Assembly: GCF_021028975.2 (NCBI RefSeq)
Contig: NC_059425.1
Location: 125,240,001-125,304,000, forward strand
Length of the DNA: 64,000 bases
Direction: 5' to 3'
DNA from: Sphaerodactylus townsendi
Lineage: Eukaryota
This document shows positions 9,221-49,465 of the stretch, piece by piece. Position numbers and translations under genes: made by a program. Under the pieces are notes generated by a model that saw only the letters and a program-made list of their open reading frames with translations, was not told the DNA's origin and made no database searches. Position 1 is the first letter of the stretch. Every line of letters starts with the position of its first letter.

Positions 9221-10465
9221 TAAGACTGGGTGCTCTTGCCTATATGCTGGCTTCCACAACAGCTGCTCTTACCCAAATGCTGACTTCCACAATATTTCAC
9301 AACAGTGAAATATTGGTAGGGAGCACCCTGACCAATTCCTTCTCATGATGGTCCATATGGCAAAATGGGGGCAGAAAGTATAATCAGGACAAATGTAACC
9401 AGGACAACTACATTAACTTGCAGTTGCTAATCACCTCTCCCTGGGATGAGTGTCATCAGTATCTGCTTCAAGGGGGTCCCCTGGCAATGTGATCCTCCTA
9501 GGGCACTGCACATACCATGGTGCCTATGCAGTTTGCCATTGCTATATGTGTCTCTGTTTCACTCTTCCACACGCACGCACACACGCACACACACACAAAA
9601 CTTCCCGCTAGGAATTTCTGCTCCCAAATCACTTAATCATTACTTACTGAAATACTGATTTCAATCATCATAACTTAATCTTATCTTTTCTACTTCTAAG
9701 GAAAGACCTTGTATAAATCTTTTCATGTTATAACAGCTACTAAATGAAACTAAATCAGTCAAAGAAGAGATTTGTCCTATTACCTTTACTTATTTCTTTC
9801 TGCTCTTATTTTTTTTTTTTTTACTAATACTGAAAACCTAATGTTAGGTATTTGTATTCCTCTTTTACTTAAATATATTTTATTGACAAACCACAGCCTT
9901 CTCTAAATTTCTCTAAGTTCTGATATTTAATAAATATGAACAGTTTATTCATTGACATAAACTCAGTCATTTTCTGTATCCATTTTTTTAATAATTGGAT
10001 TTTGCATGGACTTCCACTTTGTCAATTACAATAACTTTTATGAAATTAAACTTCTTAAAGTTAGGCTTGTGATAGATACACAACAGACATTGAACAATAG
10101 GGTAGAGCTTAGAATTTCCAGGTGTGCTCTTACAACAGGCAAAATCTTTCCTCTGTCCTCAATTGTCTTGACTTTCCTCTGTCCTCAATCGTCTTGATTA
10201 AATGAATAGTGGGAGAAAAATTGTGAGGGGATGGCATTACAGCCTCCAACAAAACTCCAGGAAATCCTCAATCTCTAAGGTCTTTACCTTAGTATACAGA
10301 ACTTCCCTCTCCCAGACTGTATCCCCAGCTTCAAAGATTTATTTATTTGTTTGTTTATTTGTTTATTCATCAAAGGGCTCTGGGTGGTATACAACCCAAT
10401 TAAACAGTAGCCAGGGAGGAACAGCCACGTCCCAAAAGAATTGAGACGCTGGATCCACTTTGGTC

Positions 10466-12039
10466 CATGGCCCCTTCACCAGTTTGTTTACTTGTCCTTT
10501 GCCAATGGCTAGAACAGTACCCAAATAAGCTGGGGGCCGAGTTCCTGAGGGAAGGTTTCCTTTGGGTTTCAGGATCTCATACACGGGCCCCAGGAGGGCC
10601 TCCTTTGCCCCTAACATAAGTTTGGCAAGAGAATTTCCAGGGATAGTGGCCGATAAGATCAAGAAGGAGGTGGAGGCTAGCAGGATTGCAGGCCCATTTC
10701 TCAGCCCTCCTTTGGTGACGTTAAGGGTCTCACCAATAGGGATCATGCCCAAGAAGAGCCCGGGGGAGTACTGCATGATTCAACACCTTTCTTACATCAA
10801 AGGAGGATCAGTAAATGGCTTTATTGACCCAGCCAGGTGCTCAGTTTGGTACGCCACCTTGGATGAGGCGGTAGAGCTGATCAGGGTGGCTGGCCCCGGG
10901 GCCAAACTGGCAAAATGCAATATACAGTTGGCCTTCAGACTCTTGCCCATTTGTCCTGGGGATTTTGACTTGCTGGGAATTTGTTTCCAGAATCACTGGT
11001 ATGTCGACAAGGCAATGCCGATGGGCTGTTTGATTGCATGCTCAGCATTTGAGTCATTTAGCACCTTTCTGGAGTGGGCCTTTACCCGCAGGGCACCGTC
11101 AGGCTTAGTGACCCACTACCTGGATTATTTCTTGTTCATTGGTGGGCAGGGAACAGGGGAATGCCAAAGTGCTTTGCACACCTTCCAGATGTTAATGGAG
11201 GAGTTGGGAGTTCCATTAGCCCCCAAGAAGACGGAAGGGCCGTCTGTCCACCTTAGCTATTTGGGTGTGCAACTGGACACCGTCCAGGATACGTCATCAC
11301 TCCCTCTGGACAAATTGGCAACCTTGGAAGGCATCATAGCCGAGGCATTGCATAGCAAAAAGTGTAGGCTTCGTTTTCTCCAATCACTCCTGGGCCATTT
11401 AAACTTCGCCTGCCGGGTGGTTTCCCCAGGCTGGGCATTTTGCGCCCATCTGGCCAGGTCCCTCTCAGGCGTTTCTGCCCTACATCACTGGATCAGTCAC
11501 CAGGAGCATGAAAGCCAGCCTGAGGGTGTGGCAGCAATTTTTGGTTGCCTTTAATGGCACTTCGCTCTGGCAAGCACCCATGGAACCAGGCTCTGAATTT
11601 CAAGTACACTCAGATGCCGTGGGCGGGGTTGGTTTTGGAGTTTACTTCCAAGGGAATTGGGCCTGGGGCACAGGACCGGCATCACCAGGGACCTAACATT
11701 TTAGAGCTCTTTCCCATCCTAGTAGCGGCCCACTTATGGCATAGGCATTTTCAAAACAAGAGGGTGTTGTTCTGGTGTGACAAACAGGCCGTGGTTAGAG
11801 TAGTCAATCGCTAGTCCAGCAGATCAGAGCATGTAATGCGGCTAGTGCAAAACTTTGTGCTCACTTGCCTGTTGCACAACATATCCTTTAGGGCATCTTT
11901 TATTCCAGGCCTGACTAATGAAATTGCCGATGCTCTTTTGCACCAGCAGGTGGATCGCTTCAGGCGTTTGGCCTCAGAGGCGGAGCGACACCCAGAGATC
12001 ATGCCAGTTGGCCTTTGGGACCTTGGCAGCGAACAGTAA
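10466..12039 (+). pseudogene. Ngaro RT-RNase H (frameshifted)
   Basis: GFRISYTGP, VSPIGIMPKK, AFRLLPI, MPMGC, YLDYF (YLDD mutated), YLGVQLDT, LQSLLGHLNFAC; RNase H HSDA..GFG, LELFPILVA, WCDKQAVV, NEIADAL. Confidence 0.9.
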
Positions 12040-12913
12040 TAGAAGGTGTATTACGTTCTTTAGCTCTGGCGACTCGCCGGACATATGCAGGGGCCGTAAG
12101 GGCTTTCCAATCATTCTCAGCTAATGCCGGCCACCCCCTCTGCCGAGGGGTTGGGGAAGGTTTACTCCTGCATGATTCGGGGTTGCACGCCTGTACCATA
12201 CGGGTGCAGTTGGCTGGGATCGCCTTCTTTTGCCAGTTGTCTGGCTTTCCAGATGTCACGTTGTTCTTTCTAGTCAGCAAGCTGTTGGCAGGCTGGCACT
12301 GCTCGGTGCCCGGCCAAAAGGATCTCCAACTCCCCATCACCAAAGGAGTGTTGCGTGCCATTACCAGGGTACTGCACAGTGTCTGTTCAGCGGACTATGA
12401 AATTCTGTTGTTCACGGCCACATTTCACTTGGCCCATTATGGGACGTTCAGGCCCCGCGAGTTAGTCGCCCCTCCCGAGCTGTGAAGCTGGAGAAGGTGC
12501 TCCAGTTCCCCCACTTAGTGGTGGCAGAGGATGCCGTGCATGTTTGGCTCTCCCATTCCAAAACGGATCAGGTGGGGCGGGGCACATGGGTGACTATGCC
12601 AGCCTTACCAGGCAATATCATATGTCCCCGTGCCTCCATGGTAGTCTGATTGCCGTTCAGGCCCAGGCGGGAGAGCATGCTTTTCATTCATCAGGACTGT
12701 TCCCCACTGACCAGGTATCAGATGTCGGCCATGTTAAGGGGTTGTCTGAACAAATTGGGGTTGCCCTGCAAGGAGTTCAGGCTCCATTCATTCCACATAG
12801 GAGCGGCCACTGCAGCAGCCCAGGAGGGCAGGGCCCTGGAAAAGATCCAGGCCGTAGGCAGGTGGCGTTCAGGAGCCTTTTGGGCATATGTGTGTCCTCA
12901 CTTATCCCTTTAA
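12015..12913 (+). pseudogene. Ngaro tyrosine recombinase (disrupted)
   Basis: SLALATRRTY, GTFRPREL, HSKTDQ, HSFHIGAAT (HxxR mutated), GRWRSGAFWAY. Confidence 0.88.
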
Positions 12914-12927
12914 TCCCCCTTTTGCAG

Positions 12928-13520
12928 TCTCGCCAGCATCGCCGCAGACTGCCCGCCGGCAGGTGTGGATTATGGGGCACAGCATCGTCAAGAGAGCTCG
13001 GGCATACACAGCTTTTTCTGGCTGGGGCCTGAACCTCGGGCTGGACCCGGTGATGGAATTCCGGTGGCTGGGACAAAGCGGCATGAGATGGGCCACATTA
13101 CAATGGGTGGTGTGCTCGACCATCATCCGCATGGGCCGCCCAGACGTGCTGGTCTTGCAGCTGGGCGAGAACGACCTGCTGGCCATGAAAGGCCTCAAAC
13201 TGTCCCTGAGGATGGCCAGCGGCCTTCAACAACTCCATCGCCGCTTGCCCAACACCAAACTGGTCTGGTCCAGGCAACTGCAGCAGATCCTGTGGAGGGA
13301 TGCTGAGCGCCCAAATAAGGTGGGCCGTGCCAGGCAGAAGGTGGACAAGGCAGCTGCATGGCTCGTTCTTTCTCTGGGTGGTGCTGTGGTAGACCACCCT
13401 GACATCACACATGACCAGCATGCGCTCTTCCATTCAGACAGTGTCCACCTTTCGGAACAGGGGATGGGCATGTGGCTTCATGCCATCCGGCACACCCTTC
13501 TCCAATTGACTCAGGCTTGA
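12928..13520 (+). CDS. SGNH/GDSL-hydrolase (esterase)-like ORF carried by the Ngaro element
   Basis: Block I WIMGHSIV, block II GQSG, block III LQLGENDL, block V DSVH; ORF 12888-13520 is uninterrupted; start given at the putative splice acceptor. Confidence 0.8.
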
Positions 13521-14626
13521 GAAGCTGGGGCGAGAGCTGTGGGCAGCTCGTTGGCAGGTTGGCAACGGAATTGCAACATCGGGGGGAGAAGCCGAGCCGG
13601 GTGGCCGGCCTTCTCCATGATTGGTGCCCTTAACGAAGGGCCGGTGGTGGGGTGGGCCGGTAAGGAAGCCGGTAGGCTTAGCTGGTGCCCGCCACCCCAG
13701 CAGGTGGGGGTGGGGCGGGCCGGTAGGCAAGCCGTTACCCCCCAGCAGGAAGGGTTGACACCAAGGGGTATCCACCCCGGTGGCTCCCGGGTTCCTGCCC
13801 AATGCCCAATGGAGATTGGGGACGGCATGATGTTGCAATCCGTTTGTCTGCCCAGCTTCATAAGTGTTTTATGTTTGCTAATTAATAAATTGGGCTGCGG
13901 CCCAATCTATTTCCAAGCTCTGGTTTGATGTGTTTATTTGTCGGGGAAGGGTCTACACCATCTGCATACAAATCTTGGGAGCTGTTTCACAAAACGTTGA
14001 AAGAACCCTGAATAGACAGTCTTCTTTCACTGGTTTCCACCATCCTCCAAATTTATGCAAATTATTTGTGACCACTGAAATAATACCACCATTCCTCAAC
14101 TGGATACTGCATGCTGGGGAAAAACACACATAAGTGTATGTATTTATTTTAATGACCCTAATCCCATGATCTCAACCACATCTTAAAAGCCAAACTGTCT
14201 TTTTACCAGTGCAGTCCTAAACAATTACATCCTTCTAAATCCACTGTATTTAATAATATTAGAAGAGTGTAACTATACTCTGCATTACACAATTTCTATT
14301 GTGTTTACATAGAAAACGTTACCTCAGTGATAATTTCCTCCATTTACAGCGTTCTTAGAACAATTACCTTGGTTCCTAATGGCTGCAAACCCAGTGTGTC
14401 ACTAATTAAGGCAGAAGTGATATTCTTAACATTTTTAAATATCTCTGAGAGAGCTAAGTTAAATTAATTAGTGTTGAACTAATTGTCTGGAATTACAGTA
14501 ATTCAGCAGAACAGACAGTCATCTTCTTTCAATTGTCTGTGTCCAGGATTTTACATAGGAGAGATGTACTGGATGACATTTACAGACACTTCCAAGAAGA
14601 TTTTTTTAATACATCTGAAAGTTGAT

Positions 14627-17600: not shown

Positions 17601-19834
17601 AAACAGTAATTAGTTGTTCAAATTGAACTATTCCCAGTTCTGGGGAAGCAGCCTTTGTTATATCCTCTTTTAATTTGGTTATCATAGGAGAGCCAAGCAG
17701 GGCCTCCTGGTGGCTGCTACCTGTGGTGACCATGTTAACTTATAGTGCTTGGGTGTCAAAGAAGGGTCCTCATCAACCCCAACCTTACTTGAAAAGGTTA
17801 GAGTTAGTGGTAGATGATCACTGAGTAATAGGTCCCCAATACTAAAAGAAGTAACGAACTGATATAAATAGGGTGACATTAAAATATAATCAATTACACT
17901 CGAACCCATGGGATTAACCAGGGTAAAACTATCTGCGTTTCTATGGTGTTTAAGCCCATTCAACCATAGTTTGTTAAATTTTATGGCAAATTTTATTAGC
18001 TGGATTCCAGCGGAGTTCCAGCGGAGTGGATCTTTAGAAGTCCGGCGGGCAGGACATAGGAGAAGCTGTGCAGAGTCGTCCTCAAGGTTGAGCTGGGCCA
18101 AAGTTGTGGATAGTTCTGCACCAACCCTGGCATTAAAGTCTCCTGTCAATATTAACTCCGTAAGCGGGTGATTATTTTCCAGGTTCTCAATGAATGATGA
18201 TAAACTGCTCCAAGTATTGGATAAGAGACTAAATGAAATAGGCAGAGAGATATAGAGGTTTACTATAATCATAGTCAGATCTTCCCCTCCTATCAAAACC
18301 ACATGGGCAAGAGGTGGACAGGAGCCCAGAGAAGTGGATTTAATACCGTTGGTAACAAACAGTACAAGACCACCGCATAGCGTAAATTTGGATACTCTGG
18401 TGGCTGGAAGGGAATATTGGTGGTAGCCTTTAAGAATAAATCTGTGGTAGACCAGGTTTCTTGCAGAGCTATAAACTTAAATCTGCTTAAGTAAGCGGTA
18501 AAGAATCAGTTCTTGCTTTGGTTGTTCCATCCTCGCGATGTTCCAGGAGATAAGGAGGCTACTTCCCTTCCTGGCGTCGAGTCCATAGGGAGTGATTTCT
18601 TCGATGGCAGGCATGTCATACTGGATACAGCCATTCATAGGGCCCCTATTCGGAATTCCCATTGAGTTCCCATTGAGTTCCCTCAGTTCCTCCATCCAGG
18701 ACTTTCCAAAGGTCACTGAACCTGGGTCAGTTTGGGGTAGTCTGGATGATCTAAGATCCAGATCAAAGTCCTCTGTACTTTGGGGGTCTTGCCTCTCATG
18801 GATTGTAGTTGACTTTGCCTCTTTGTTGTCTCCAGTTGGCTGAGGCTGTGATTCCTCCTCACGGAGGACTTGAGCTGTTGACTTAATGAAATTCCTTTGA
18901 CCAAGTGCAGGTACTGGGGAGGCTGAGATATCAACTAGATCTTCTTGAAGGCCAATAGAAAGATCACAAAATCCCTCTGTATTCTTTCCTTCATTGATTG
19001 TGGATTCAGGTTCGATTAGAGGGACCTTAGAGCTAATACATAATAGGGTCTCATCTGTTCCATTATGAGTTATAGTGTCCAAGATGGTACCAGGGCTGGG
19101 ATTGTTAGAACATAGTTGCAATTCCTCCAGCTCAACTGCCCAGGATTTTCCTCCTGAGCTACGGAAGTTTCTGTAATTGAGTACTCTTTCTGAACGCAGA
19201 TCAATATCAATGTCAGTTACTTGATTCGATGGTTTTAACGGACTTTTAAGATTCTCTCTGTTAGTGGGTTGATGTTGCATCAGCTGTTGATGGGTGGAGA
19301 GATCTAGAAGTTGTGAGTGGAGAGCTGAGTCTGTCTGGGGTTGTTTAATAGTTTCCGCCACCTGCTTAGCTGAAGGGATTTCACCTGGGTTCTTGGGTGA
19401 ACGTTGTTGACTCGCCATCCCCTCAATAAGAGTCTTTAGACAGTTCCATTCTGTCAGGATGGAGTTAATCTCATTCATCCTTTCGGTATTTCTGTTGAGA
19501 GTCTCTGGGAGAGTACAGGATGAAAAAGTCGAGGGTTCCTTAGGATAGATTGCTTTATTGGGTAACTCCTTGTTGCTGGGAATATCCACCAGTTTGTTGA
19601 TTTTGGTGTTCTAAAAACCCTATTTACCCAGATGTCATAGCTATTAGCAAAAAAAGGTTTTGTGCTTGAGTAGATAGGAGGGGGTGTCAGGGGACTCAAA
19701 GCTTAGTACCAGTCTTGTGTATTTATTACGATATGGAAGTCTTTTAAAGGATTTCAGGTGGGTCTTCTTTGGTTGGCAGTTGAGAAGTTTACTGGGGGAT
19801 ATACATATCCTGTGAAAGGTTGACCACCGACCAT
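14627..19834 (-). mobile_element. RTE-X-like LINE, 5.2 kb, 5'-truncated
   Basis: 17-bp TSD TACATCTGAAAGTTGAT (14610-14626, 19835-19851); APE motifs SWNIA, LTGDFNAR, SVIDYI, SDHLP; RT GVKQGCILAPL, FKYLGI; C-terminal RLCPCNSGQVETLEHTLFHC; AATAAA plus (ATC)n tail. Confidence 0.9.
15213..18560 (-). pseudogene. LINE ORF2 (APE endonuclease-RT-Cys/His domain), multiple frameshifts
   Basis: ORF-track pieces 17682-18302, 17413-17733, 17135-17398, 16451-16669, 15796-16350 and 15213-15947 are collinear. Confidence 0.88.
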
Positions 19835-46068: not shown

Positions 46069-48424
46069 TAGCAGAAGTAATCTCAGAACCACTGACAATA
46101 CTCTAAGAAATCCTGGAGAATAGGAGAAGTCTCAACAGAATGGAGGAGGGCAAATATTGTCCCTATCTTCAAAATGGGGGGGGGGGGAAGAAGTCCCAAA
46201 CAATTACTGTCCAGTCAGCCTGACAATACCAGCAAAGAATCTAGCAGATTATTAAACAGATAGTCTGCTGACACTTAGAAAGGAATGCTGTGATCACTGG
46301 GTTTCTCAAAAATGAGTCATGTCAGACCAATCTTATCTCTCTCTCTCTTTTTTTTAACAGAGTAGCTTGGCAGATGAAGGGAATGCTGTGGATGTAGCAT
46401 ACCTTGATTTCAGGAAGGCCTTTGACAAGGTGCCCCATGATATTCTTGCAAGCAAGCTAGTAAAATGTGGGCTGCACAAGGCTACTGTTAGGTGTTTTAG
46501 TTGGTTGACCAACAGAACCCAAAAGACACCAGTGGCTCCTCTTAATGCTAGAGAGAAGTGATTAGCAGGGTGCCACAGGGTTCTGTCCTGGGCCCAGTGT
46601 TATTCAACATTTTTATAATTGACTTGGATGATGGAATAGAGGGCATGCTAATCAAATTTGCAGATGACACCAAGGGATAGTGAATACCCCCAAGGACAGG
46701 GTCAGAATTCAAAATGGCCTTGACAGATTAGAGAGCTGGACCAAAACTAAGAAAATGAATATCAACCGGTAGAAATGTAAGGTATTAGGTAGAAAAAATG
46801 AAATGCACAGATATAGAATGGGCAATACTTGCCTTATCAATAGTATACATAAAATAGATCTTGGAGTCTTAGTAGATCAAAAACTGAGTATGAGTCAATG
46901 GTGTGATGTAGCATCAGGGAAAGTCAATGCAATTCTGGGCTATATCATTGAGGGATAGTGTTTAGGTCAAAGGAAGTAATGATCAGACTAAGTGCCTCAA
47001 ATCCTGTGTCCAGTTCTGGACACCAAATTCAAGAAGAATATTGGCAAGTCCAGAGGATAAAATCTTAAAATGTCTGGAATCCATGCCCTTTGAGGAAGAC
47101 TTAGGGAGCTGGGTATGTTTAGTCTAGAGAAGAAAAGGTTAAGGAATGACATGATAGCCATGTTCAAATATTTGAAGGGATGTAATATTGAAGAGGGAGC
47201 AAGCTCGTTTTCTGCTACTTCTGACAAGACAAGAACAAGAAGTAATGGATTCAAAGGACAAGAAATAATGGATTCAAACTACGAGAAAGGATATTTCAGC
47301 TAAACATTAGGAAGAACTGTTCAACAGCTGTTCAACAGTAGGTTATGCTGCCTTCGATTGTAATGGAGTCTCCCTCTTTGGAGGTTTTTATACAGAAGTT
47401 GGATAGCCATCCCTGGAGGGCTTTGATGGTGTTTTCCTGAATGGCAGGGGGTTGGACTGAATGGCCTTTGTAATCTCTTCCAACTCTATGATTTTGTTTT
47501 CAGAGGCAACATTACAAATGTAATTAAAAGAAAAAAATCCTTTAAGTATTGCCTAGCTTACCAAATATAATGATTATGATACTTTTTAGCCTACAGGGAG
47601 CAGAACATAATTGCTTGGTCAAAACCATTCTGATCTAGGATAAGCTGTTTAATTTATTATCATAAGTTAATATATTAAACACTTTAGCACTTGTTTAATA
47701 ACCTGCCTGCAGAAAAGAAATGTGTGTGGTTTGCATCAAAATATTAATAAACTCTATGTGCAGAAAGGATTTAGTACTGCTATTGAATCCTCGATGTGTA
47801 TAGTTAGGATTTTTGCTTTCCCTTCAGGCTTTTTGAATTACATTATTATGATGAATCTTAGATGGCTGTGACAAGAATATTGTAAGTCAAAAAGAGTAAG
47901 TGTACAAGGGATTTTCTGTACTTAGGTAGTGATTTACATGATTATGCATTCTTAAGTCGAGTAACATAGAAGTAATTCAAGTTAATGATTCTAAAATTCA
48001 GAATAAGGAGCCTAAATAGATGAAGGTAACAACAAAATAACACAAGAAGCCAGTTAGGATGTTCAAATCCATATTGAAACACTGTGAATATTTAATACTG
48101 TGAATATATTTTGACAATCTGTTAATTAATAATGTACTCCTAAGCAGAGTAATACTGTTCTAGGATGAATGCCTTCAGTGGACTTAGAAGGATGTAATCC
48201 TGTAAACAAATGCATTGTAAATGTGTTATTTTAAAAGTGAACATCAGACTAGACCAGACTCCTCATATAGAAATGTTTTGGAGAAGTATCATGAAAGTTA
48301 CTAAATAATTCATCGAAGCTGACATTTCATTCTTCATTCTGTAAAGAAATTTGGCTATGGCAGGTGCAGTAGCATCAAAAGATCTTGATAATGGTCATTG
48401 ACACTTGAGGAGGGGAGAATGTGC

Positions 48425-49465
48425 TCGAGGGTACAGAAAGACAACACAGACAACTACCTTGTATGGAATAAAATTTGACCACAGCCTGTTTATTGGTATG
48501 CTGGCCGAAGGAAGCAGAGGCGCAGGATAGGGGATGGATCCGGCACTGGGCATCAAGTCTGCTGTCCCCCAGTAATAACCTTCCTCCTGCCCAATGAATG
48601 GGGGGGGGGGGAAACAATACCTGGAGCAGCAAGATAGTGTGAGCCATCTGGGTGCTGGCATCTGGATGAACTCCCCTTGTTTCCAGGGGATACGAGCCAC
48701 CTGCAGCCCCCACCTGGACATGTGGTACACATGCTCGCTACCACCCCCCAGGCCTCTTATGGTTGAGATTACTCAAGGCGTGCCACTGTCTTATTGGTCC
48801 TGCATCTGGCCAGATCCACTTTCTCTGGGGTCAATACCATACTTGATGCTCCAGTAGGTGGGACCAGAAAATAGCAGCGTGTCATGAATTCCAAGTCCAA
48901 CACCATGCGGTGTTGTAAGTAGATCATTCTCTCCCAGATGATGATTAAAATGTGAGGTGGTCTGTCCCTTGCAACTGCTTCATCCAGTACTGGCAGCAAG
49001 GCCTCCCAACACATCCCTCTCTGTCCCATCCAAAACATGGTCACATGGCTGGCAAGGCCAAGGTCTCTTCCCCAACCAGAAGGCGAGGCATACTTGGCAG
49101 CCCAATAGACAATGTTGTGGCCAACAATCCAGTCCTGCTATGGCCTGAAAGGACTGAAAGATGATAAACATTAGTTCTCAAGCCAGGGGCGAACATATTC
49201 CTTGTATGCCAGGAAGCGTCAGTGCCCAATGGTGCAGATCTGCTCCTCAGGCAAACCCAGATGTGCTGCAGTTGTAGCGGCACCAATACAGAAAGCGTGG
49301 GGACCAAACCTGATGCCAGGAGCCCCATGTGGCCCAAACTAATCCAAATGGAAACATGATAAGCACATGCTATCAGAATGTATAAGGAAGGGGCCCCCAC
49401 ACCTAGGCTGGCATTCTGGCCCTTTGCTGTGGAGACCCCCCTTGATTTTCACTGGGGGGTGGGGG
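48425..49465 (-). mobile_element. Second Ngaro/DIRS-type remnant (YR C-terminus, SGNH hydrolase, 3' terminal region)
   Basis: HAFCIGAATTAA...IGH*RFLAYKEYVRP; WIVGHNIVYWA; WMGQRGMCW; PHILII-HLGENDLL; AATAAA-CAGGCTGTGGTC end. Confidence 0.8.

Follow-up and report, generated by a model that had tools for sequence, protein, structure and literature searches.

Conserved splice-like sites predict a Gag–SGNH hydrolase fusion in Ngaro-like retrotransposons of Sphaerodactylus townsendi

Introns have been reported in some fungal DIRS elements, and spliced Gag-derived fusions are known from retroviruses, namely from an alternative gag donor in murine leukaemia virus (MLV) and as a gag-env leader in avian sarcoma and leukosis viruses (ASLV). 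In the Xenopus elements DIRS-53_XT and DIRS-54_XT, by comparison, the SGNH hydrolase is treated as a separate open reading frame (ORF) of no proven function (PMC9210276; papers given by PMC number are cited throughout for the portions consulted). Rotifer Vesta elements carry a GDSL ORF3, env/ORF3 being made from spliced RNA (PMC5408684), and the ORF1p esterase of ZfL2-1, a long interspersed nuclear element (LINE), binds negatively charged phospholipids (PMC3905857). [quoted passage not shown] Here we analyze two Ngaro copies from a 64,000-nt stretch of Sphaerodactylus townsendi contig NC_059425.1 (the window), which belong to different subfamilies and are both broken and 5'-truncated, together with their relatives. 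An earlier note made from the window alone had proposed that the SGNH gene downstream of YR is an env-like accessory gene expressed by splicing onto an upstream gag or leader exon. Sequence comparison leads us to propose that vertebrate Ngaro elements very probably express SGNH as a fusion with the N-terminal half of Gag (Gag-N/SGNH), from a spliced RNA joining a donor in the middle of gag to an acceptor past the YR stop.

The predicted acceptor downstream of the YR stop

In copy 1 (forward strand), the YR gene (11950..12913), recognized by translation and by tblastx to the intact YR of the near-intact relative L049, is broken by a stop and frameshifts and ends in TAA at 12911-12913. It is followed by CCCCCTTTTGCAG, a pyrimidine tract with a CAG acceptor (12914..12927, AG at 12926-12927) leading in phase 1 into the open frame 12858-13520. 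The SGNH exon (12928..13520, +) is open, contains the catalytic blocks GHS, GEND and DSVH and matches Pfam Lipase_GDSL_2 with an expect value (E) of 2.7e-6, below the cut-off. A candidate branch point, CTCAC (12897..12901, +), would lie in Pro-His codons of YR with its A 28 nt upstream of the exon, judged by the branch-point consensus; CCT is kept in 32/40 and CAC or CAT in 39/40 aligned copies. Copy 2 (48400..49396, reverse strand) starts inside YR and comprises the YR C-terminus, the acceptor, a broken SGNH and the 3' repeat. Its YR stop (TAA 49173-49171), pyrimidine tract and AG (49155-49154) occupy 49154..49173 (-), and a second AG (49146-49145, segment 49145..49153, -) lies 9 nt further downstream, hence in the same phase. 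These AGs stand 22 and 13 nt upstream of the conserved Trp, and the SGNH remnant (48772..49153, -) is frameshifted and out of phase with the acceptor. All coordinates in the earlier note proved correct for both copies, as did its layout of copy 1, with the first in-frame ATG (12972) in the region of catalytic block I, and its view that copy 2 is one indel off phase: the spacer of copy 2 is 4 nt shorter than in its siblings, 15 of 19 of which are in phase 1. The AG-to-Trp distance was 26 nt in 14 siblings and 17 nt in one (all phase 1), 25 nt in one and 24 nt in another; one further sibling was mis-anchored and one was not parsed.

The search of the species' own genome gave 151 matches, from 150 scored among 2443 candidates; inspection covered 30 short loci and 80 long stretches, to which 12 stretches belonging to further subfamilies and 3 checks were then added. 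A near-intact element is ordered A1, leader, gag (~590 aa), pol (~607 aa, +1 frame), YR (333 aa, -1 frame), SGNH and B1 A2 B2. In L049 the B pair of repeats is 100% identical and the A pair 99.5%, and the split direct repeats were present in four of the eight relatives examined (L049, L063, L064 and L067). Pol of L049 matched Pfam RVT_1 above the cut-off (E 7.4e-14), and the YR that follows matched Phage_int_SAM_1 above and Phage_integrase (E 1.7e-4) below it. The pol frame ends shortly past RNase H and Pfam showed RVT_1 alone, no methyltransferase domain being seen after RNase H, for which no dedicated search was made. The element is a Ngaro-like YR retrotransposon; representatives of seven subfamilies share 64-71% DNA identity in their best segment, and pol, YR and SGNH of intact copies all lack a usable start codon.

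Of 89 distinct loci, the 80 with a detectable YR end were used and nine without one were set aside, the acceptor being called as the AG with the highest score no more than 70 nt from the SGNH start. It fell in phase 1 in 75 loci, in phase 2 in four and in phase 0 in one, one third being expected in phase 1 by chance. The YR stop lay 9-33 nt from the exon, and AG-to-Trp distances varied (mostly 17, 26, 29 or 38 nt), all in one phase, a combination of fixed phase and variable spacer that fits splicing and not a fixed recoding event. Because copies share ancestry, the independent units are subfamilies rather than copies. The same tract was found in three of three distant metagenome contigs (32% identity), with the AG 38 nt upstream of Trp; the best matches of these contigs among fetched proteins include newt models. 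The genome-wide conservation of AG and phase anticipated by the earlier note was thus observed, and a conserved upstream in-frame ATG, which it had named as contrary evidence, was not: an in-frame ATG occurred in 7/80 loci.

These loci also bear on the idea that ribosomes pass from YR into SGNH by readthrough or programmed frameshifting and so make a YR-SGNH fusion. The two frames do abut within 9-33 nt of the acceptor, and gene models P0009 and P0047 join YR parts to SGNH, but the YR-to-SGNH offset is split 38/23/19 over the three frames and varies even inside subfamily B, which argues against a fixed frameshift. Together with three different stop contexts, this split largely excludes the YR-SGNH fusion, which we regard as highly improbable.

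The copy 1 SGNH protein is predicted to fold as a soluble SGNH hydrolase, presumably an esterase. Its model had a predicted local distance difference test score (pLDDT) of 94.7, and the top Foldseek matches were platelet-activating factor acetylhydrolase (PAF-AH) and GDSL esterases, with a template modelling (TM) score of about 0.7. The closest sequence in the PDB was the zebrafish ZfL2-1 ORF1p esterase (4C1B, E 7.7e-11), and the catalytic residues S18, N81, D170 and H173 were at least 90% conserved in 41 sequences. The Met encoded by the ATG at 12972 is residue 15, inside the first β strand (residues 10-16), so that translation from this codon would lose strand 1. In L075 and P0006, whose SGNH sequences are similar, Asn replaces the catalytic His (DGVNL, DGINL); L075 gave no gag motif match. 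The model is a compact α/β hydrolase, without the membrane features of a retroviral Env as far as the model shows, no transmembrane predictor having been run. The label env-like would therefore hold for the predicted splicing but not for the product, a Gag-N/SGNH fusion rather than an Env.

A predicted donor site inside gag

Scoring of GT and GC sites in five intact copies pointed to one site per element, ~3.35-3.4 kb upstream of the acceptor and inside gag, a choice fixed from the scores prior to any RNA or protein search. This donor is GTGAGT in phase 1 (the codon split after base 1), just past the basic stretch and Ser run of gag. It was mapped in 48 of 60 long loci, the other 12 giving no motif match, and read GTGAGT in 44, being the top-scoring of about 190-270 GT sites in 39. 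A genome-wide pattern that left the third positions of the Gly and Glu codons free matched 367 times, against none in the reversed control, and GGTGAG (codons GGT GAG) was present in 98 of the first 100 listed. In the 40-copy alignment, of 39 four-fold gag sites the one at the donor alone was invariant (39/39 ungapped), near-invariant four-fold sites numbering 8/126 in pol and 3/54 in YR.

The hexamer is kept over seven subfamilies under three peptides, G-E-S, S-E-S and S-E-Y. The subfamily of copy 1 encodes Ser-Glu-Ser with A/GTGAGT (the slash marks the predicted cut) in 9 of 10 mapped loci, 10 of its 19 loci being mapped; the tenth retained GTGAGT after a deletion. Three further subfamilies encode Ser-Glu-Tyr with A/GTGAGT in 9/9 gag-bearing loci, a count that leaves out L177 and L178 (no gag, pol or YR match) and L173 (no gag). 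Since the peptide changes while the hexamer stays, it is the nucleotides and not the peptide that are conserved. Both motifs might in principle have arisen through coding constraint and shared ancestry and play no part in splicing; the copies are indeed related, and the near-invariant four-fold sites of pol and YR show that such positions arise elsewhere. Against such an origin, the encoded residues change on either side of an unchanged GTGAGT, and the acceptor, located in a non-coding spacer, persists at 32% protein identity, leaving a by-product origin barely credible. The matching phase-1 donor in gag or leader that the earlier note had called for was therefore found; the upstream exon it proposed is supported in that a donor of the right phase exists and is conserved, though in mid-gag and not in the leader.

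Gene models, RNA runs and the proposed expression of SGNH, YR and pol

A search of longer proteins with an SGNH profile gave 17 matches. At least 10 of these models, from the lacertids and geckos Podarcis, Zootoca and Paroedura, consist of a low-complexity N-part followed by a basic stretch, a Ser/Thr-rich run and a Gly directly before SGNH, and several of the N-parts begin MAPKK-like, as Gag does here. A representative search found 2320 relatives, of which 150 were listed and 20 looked up; among the matches listed, models with an N-part joined to SGNH came from further lizards, two frogs, a newt, a caecilian and an abalone. When 85 proteins with one SGNH domain preceded by 100 or more residues were compared by blastp, which may miss distant Gags, with the Gag C-half and pol of L049, none matched, and eight matched YR. 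Protein P0088 (394 aa), of the same Gag-N/SGNH-like architecture, has a single recorded source, a Logan contig of 1677 nt in which the intron would not fit; it therefore derives from a spliced RNA or else from a copy with an internal deletion. Heptad-like segments were seen by eye in one group of the SGNH-bearing models.

Several observations weigh against the proposed splicing. Three RNA runs of a relative with another species label (X7, X8 and X9) and contig set X4 were aligned to L049:640-7200, and no joint at L049 1766-5155 or 2766-5155 was among those listed, in a test that covered ~6% of X7 with a threshold of 3 reads (2 joints and 263 loose ends fell outside the listing). X7 contributed 1550 reads, fairly even and in both orientations, with a depth of about 24 at both junction ends and 144 reads of at least 99% identity; the signal looks like passive transcription of many old copies, the tissue not being on record. 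Coverage by X8 and X9 was near zero at the junction ends. The junction reads at the acceptor AG suggested by the earlier note were thus not found, a weak negative given the other species label, the unrecorded tissue, the small share of X7, the near-zero X8 and X9 coverage and the threshold. Spliced genomic copies were likewise absent among the 33 pattern matches and the inspected hydrolase loci. Three patterns for such retrocopies matched 8, 4 and 21 times (controls 5, 2 and 1), and all 33 were set aside as chance matches or as locally altered but unspliced gag; three long open SGNH frames considered as spliced copies proved to be ordinary YR-adjacent copies. A search of viral contigs gave no match. 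Furthermore, the splice scores derive from approximate weights and not from MaxEntScan, the gene models may be ab initio predictions for which a gene finder would choose strong sites unaided, and P0113, compared with its own genome, matched in the SGNH part alone, leaving its N-part untied to a genomic gag. The window copies themselves, having lost gag and with it the donor, are unable to make the spliced RNA.

Two alternatives draw on these observations. The missing junctions, the in-frame ATG of 7/80 loci and that found three codons upstream of Trp in two of the three distant contigs would suit translation of SGNH without splicing, whether through reinitiation, from a non-AUG start or off an internal promoter, in which case the splice-like motifs would serve some other purpose. 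That route leaves both the fixed AG phase with its variable spacer and the invariant, phase-matched GTGAGT of gag unexplained, and we consider it very unlikely. Alternatively, the acceptor might be used mainly from another donor, one in the leader or nearer the start of gag, so that the N-part would be shorter. Copies with A/GTGAGT donors, which score about 7, contain some other GT sites with higher scores; model P0024 leaves gag at another donor, on a copy that matches L052; and in many models from other lineages the N-part does not end in a Ser run. On the other hand, among donors conserved in subfamilies A and B the mid-gag site scores best over the alignment from donor to SGNH start, it is kept in all seven subfamilies, and a leader donor would bring no ATG; a different main donor thus appears unlikely.

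From the sites, their phases, their conservation at the nucleotide level and the fold, we infer the following course of expression by splicing from mid-gag. One pre-mRNA would start in repeat A1 and be translated from the gag ATG, unspliced RNA providing Gag, Gag-Pol and the genome. The spliced RNA would leave gag at the phase-1 GTGAGT directly after the basic Arg/Ser-rich stretch, skip ~3.35 kb comprising the Gag C-half with its zinc knuckle, RT/RNase H (reverse transcriptase and ribonuclease H) and YR, and enter the SGNH exon at the phase-1 acceptor past the YR stop. The protein would comprise the Gag N-half (~300 aa in subfamily B) and the esterase, and by analogy with LINE ORF1p esterases the shared N-half may bring the esterase to the element ribonucleoprotein or to membranes. 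AATAAA close to the end of B1 (13884..13889, +) is the likely poly(A) signal.

Alternative splicing to a second acceptor would perhaps yield a Gag-N/YR protein. This candidate site, at the RNase H end and in phase 1 of the YR frame (11926..11949, +, AG 11948-11949; L049:2766), was recognized from the aligned copies, its context in the window and the junction position in model P0030. CAG was present in 40/40 aligned copies, and nearby the Ala codon GCT (38/40) gives a CTGAY branch-like motif and Ser is TCT in 37/40. YAG was found in 26/26 further loci with the motif (it was not found in 10) and in 12/12 loci of further subfamilies, a group in which the CTGAY motif is not kept and where a competing AG lies 7 nt upstream in some members. 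In the leopard gecko model P0030, a basic, Gag-like N-part runs into YR, and 24 residues separate the junction codon from a conserved Trp, exactly the spacing predicted from L176; P0162 (newt) and P0111 (mussel) have YR extensions similar to that of P0030. No Gag-N/YR fusion was found among proteins of at least 647 aa, a size range unsuited to the product and thus uninformative. On balance we slightly favor the joining of the mid-gag donor to this acceptor as well. Some 40 nt before it, CCA GGT with an upstream pyrimidine run (L049 offsets -1071 to -1066) also has near-invariant synonymous sites (40/40 and 37/40); as an acceptor it would yield merely a short pol tail.

For pol, +1 frameshifting at the candidate site CCC_UUU_CG is the probable route, as judged from the gag/pol overlap, where CCC TTT CG is kept (CCC 39/40, TTT 38/40) and is present in further subfamilies too. 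It lies at L049 offsets -2644 to -2636 from the SGNH Trp and is absent from the window, copy 1 beginning just after it. A splice acceptor for pol at the zinc knuckle was considered and set aside in favor of the +1 frameshift, its tract being purine-rich and outside the top conserved acceptors. Taken together, these would be complex retroelements in which a single gag donor serves two alternative acceptors and Gag, Gag-Pol (by +1 frameshift), Gag-N/YR and Gag-N/SGNH share a basic N-terminal half, a picture that we offer tentatively and hold somewhat less probable than its negation.

Some gene models combine the Ngaro SGNH with other sequences. P0002, P0007, P0010, P0026 and P0171 are host-gene models (ZNF638-like, ZNF318-like, SPRY-domain, CSD/PRY-SPRY) that include a Ngaro SGNH exon, some as several isoforms, and possibly reflect exon capture through the acceptor. 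P0021, P0022, P0023, P0025, P0031, P0040 and P0075 are long proteins with 2-6 linker-separated SGNH domains of the Ngaro family; among them P0021, a gene model from a gecko, has several isoforms, and a domesticated gene is possible.

As for the remaining features, copy 1 extends over 10403..13973 (+), as delimited by blastn against the long siblings L097, L099 and L102 and by tblastx, from inside the gag/pol overlap to the end of repeat B1, and contains an RT part of pol (10529..11554, +; RVT_1 E 1.5e-4, below the cut-off) broken downstream. The window copies retain only the 3' B1 region of the split direct repeats. Older copies (both window copies and L119-L138) have variable 5' truncation points, yet many stop near the B1 poly(A) signal, a pattern that might stem from LINE-driven copying of Ngaro RNA or else from recombination between B1 and B2. 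An endonuclease-like LINE fragment lies at 17685-18476 (-; Exo_endo_phos_2 E 2e-5, below the cut-off), and a Pfam scan of nine other long frames of the window gave no match.

Comparison with known systems

The element is of a known kind and the feature is real, while its expression strategy is apparently undescribed as far as the literature examined goes. Expression of Ngaro or DIRS elements by way of splicing was not reported in the consulted portions of PMC9210276, PMC7192593, PMC6681497, PMC13003380, PMC5408684, PMC5009743, PMC3783388, PMC12477816, PMC9341512, PMC8547959 and PMC13465315; 'splic' and 'intron' do not occur in the main text of PMC9210276, nor does 'dirs' in the examined part of the frameshift review PMC5009743. 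This novelty is provisional, because the 2004 paper by Goodwin and Poulter, that of Poulter and Butler from 2015, Repbase Reports and supplements were outside the literature scope.

If correct, the proposal predicts exact junctions and bears on how pol, YR and SGNH are made. It implies that the real esterase, and perhaps the recombinase, carries half of Gag, which would alter the form in which these proteins ought to be expressed for study. Should Gag-N/YR be made, splicing would replace the -1 frameshift assumed for YR. The strength of the SGNH acceptor would also account for host genes having captured the esterase exon repeatedly, and the results suggest that, among the lizard and amphibian gene models labelled 'uncharacterized', many represent transcripts of the element or host genes with a captured esterase exon. 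They also point to convergence with LINE ORF1p esterases.

The Xenopus elements DIRS-53_XT and DIRS-54_XT have the same order of gag, RT/RH, YR and SGNH and the same split repeats A1..B1 A2 B2 as the present element (PMC9210276). The candidate CCC_UUU_CGN in the gag/pol overlap, with pol in the +1 frame and without ATG, resembles the UCC_UUU_CGU +1 cassette (PMC5009743). The LINE esterase ZfL2-1 (4C1B) shares the SGNH fold and an N-terminal segment joined to the esterase, but is encoded by one unspliced ORF upstream of ORF2, whereas in Ngaro the SGNH exon is 3' of YR and Gag-N would be joined to it by predicted splicing (PMC3905857). The LINE arrangement, a single ORF1 upstream of the endonuclease/RT ORF2, is accordingly not that of the present element. 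Retroviral env and the ORF3 of long terminal repeat (LTR) elements resemble the Ngaro model in that a 3' gene is expressed once most of gag-pol has been spliced out, and Ngaro differs from them in having no envelope, a mid-gag donor that keeps about half of Gag, and a YR in place of a DDE integrase. The spliced fusions of MLV and ASLV likewise use a donor inside the gag coding sequence, as proposed here, with different partner genes and in a different class of element.
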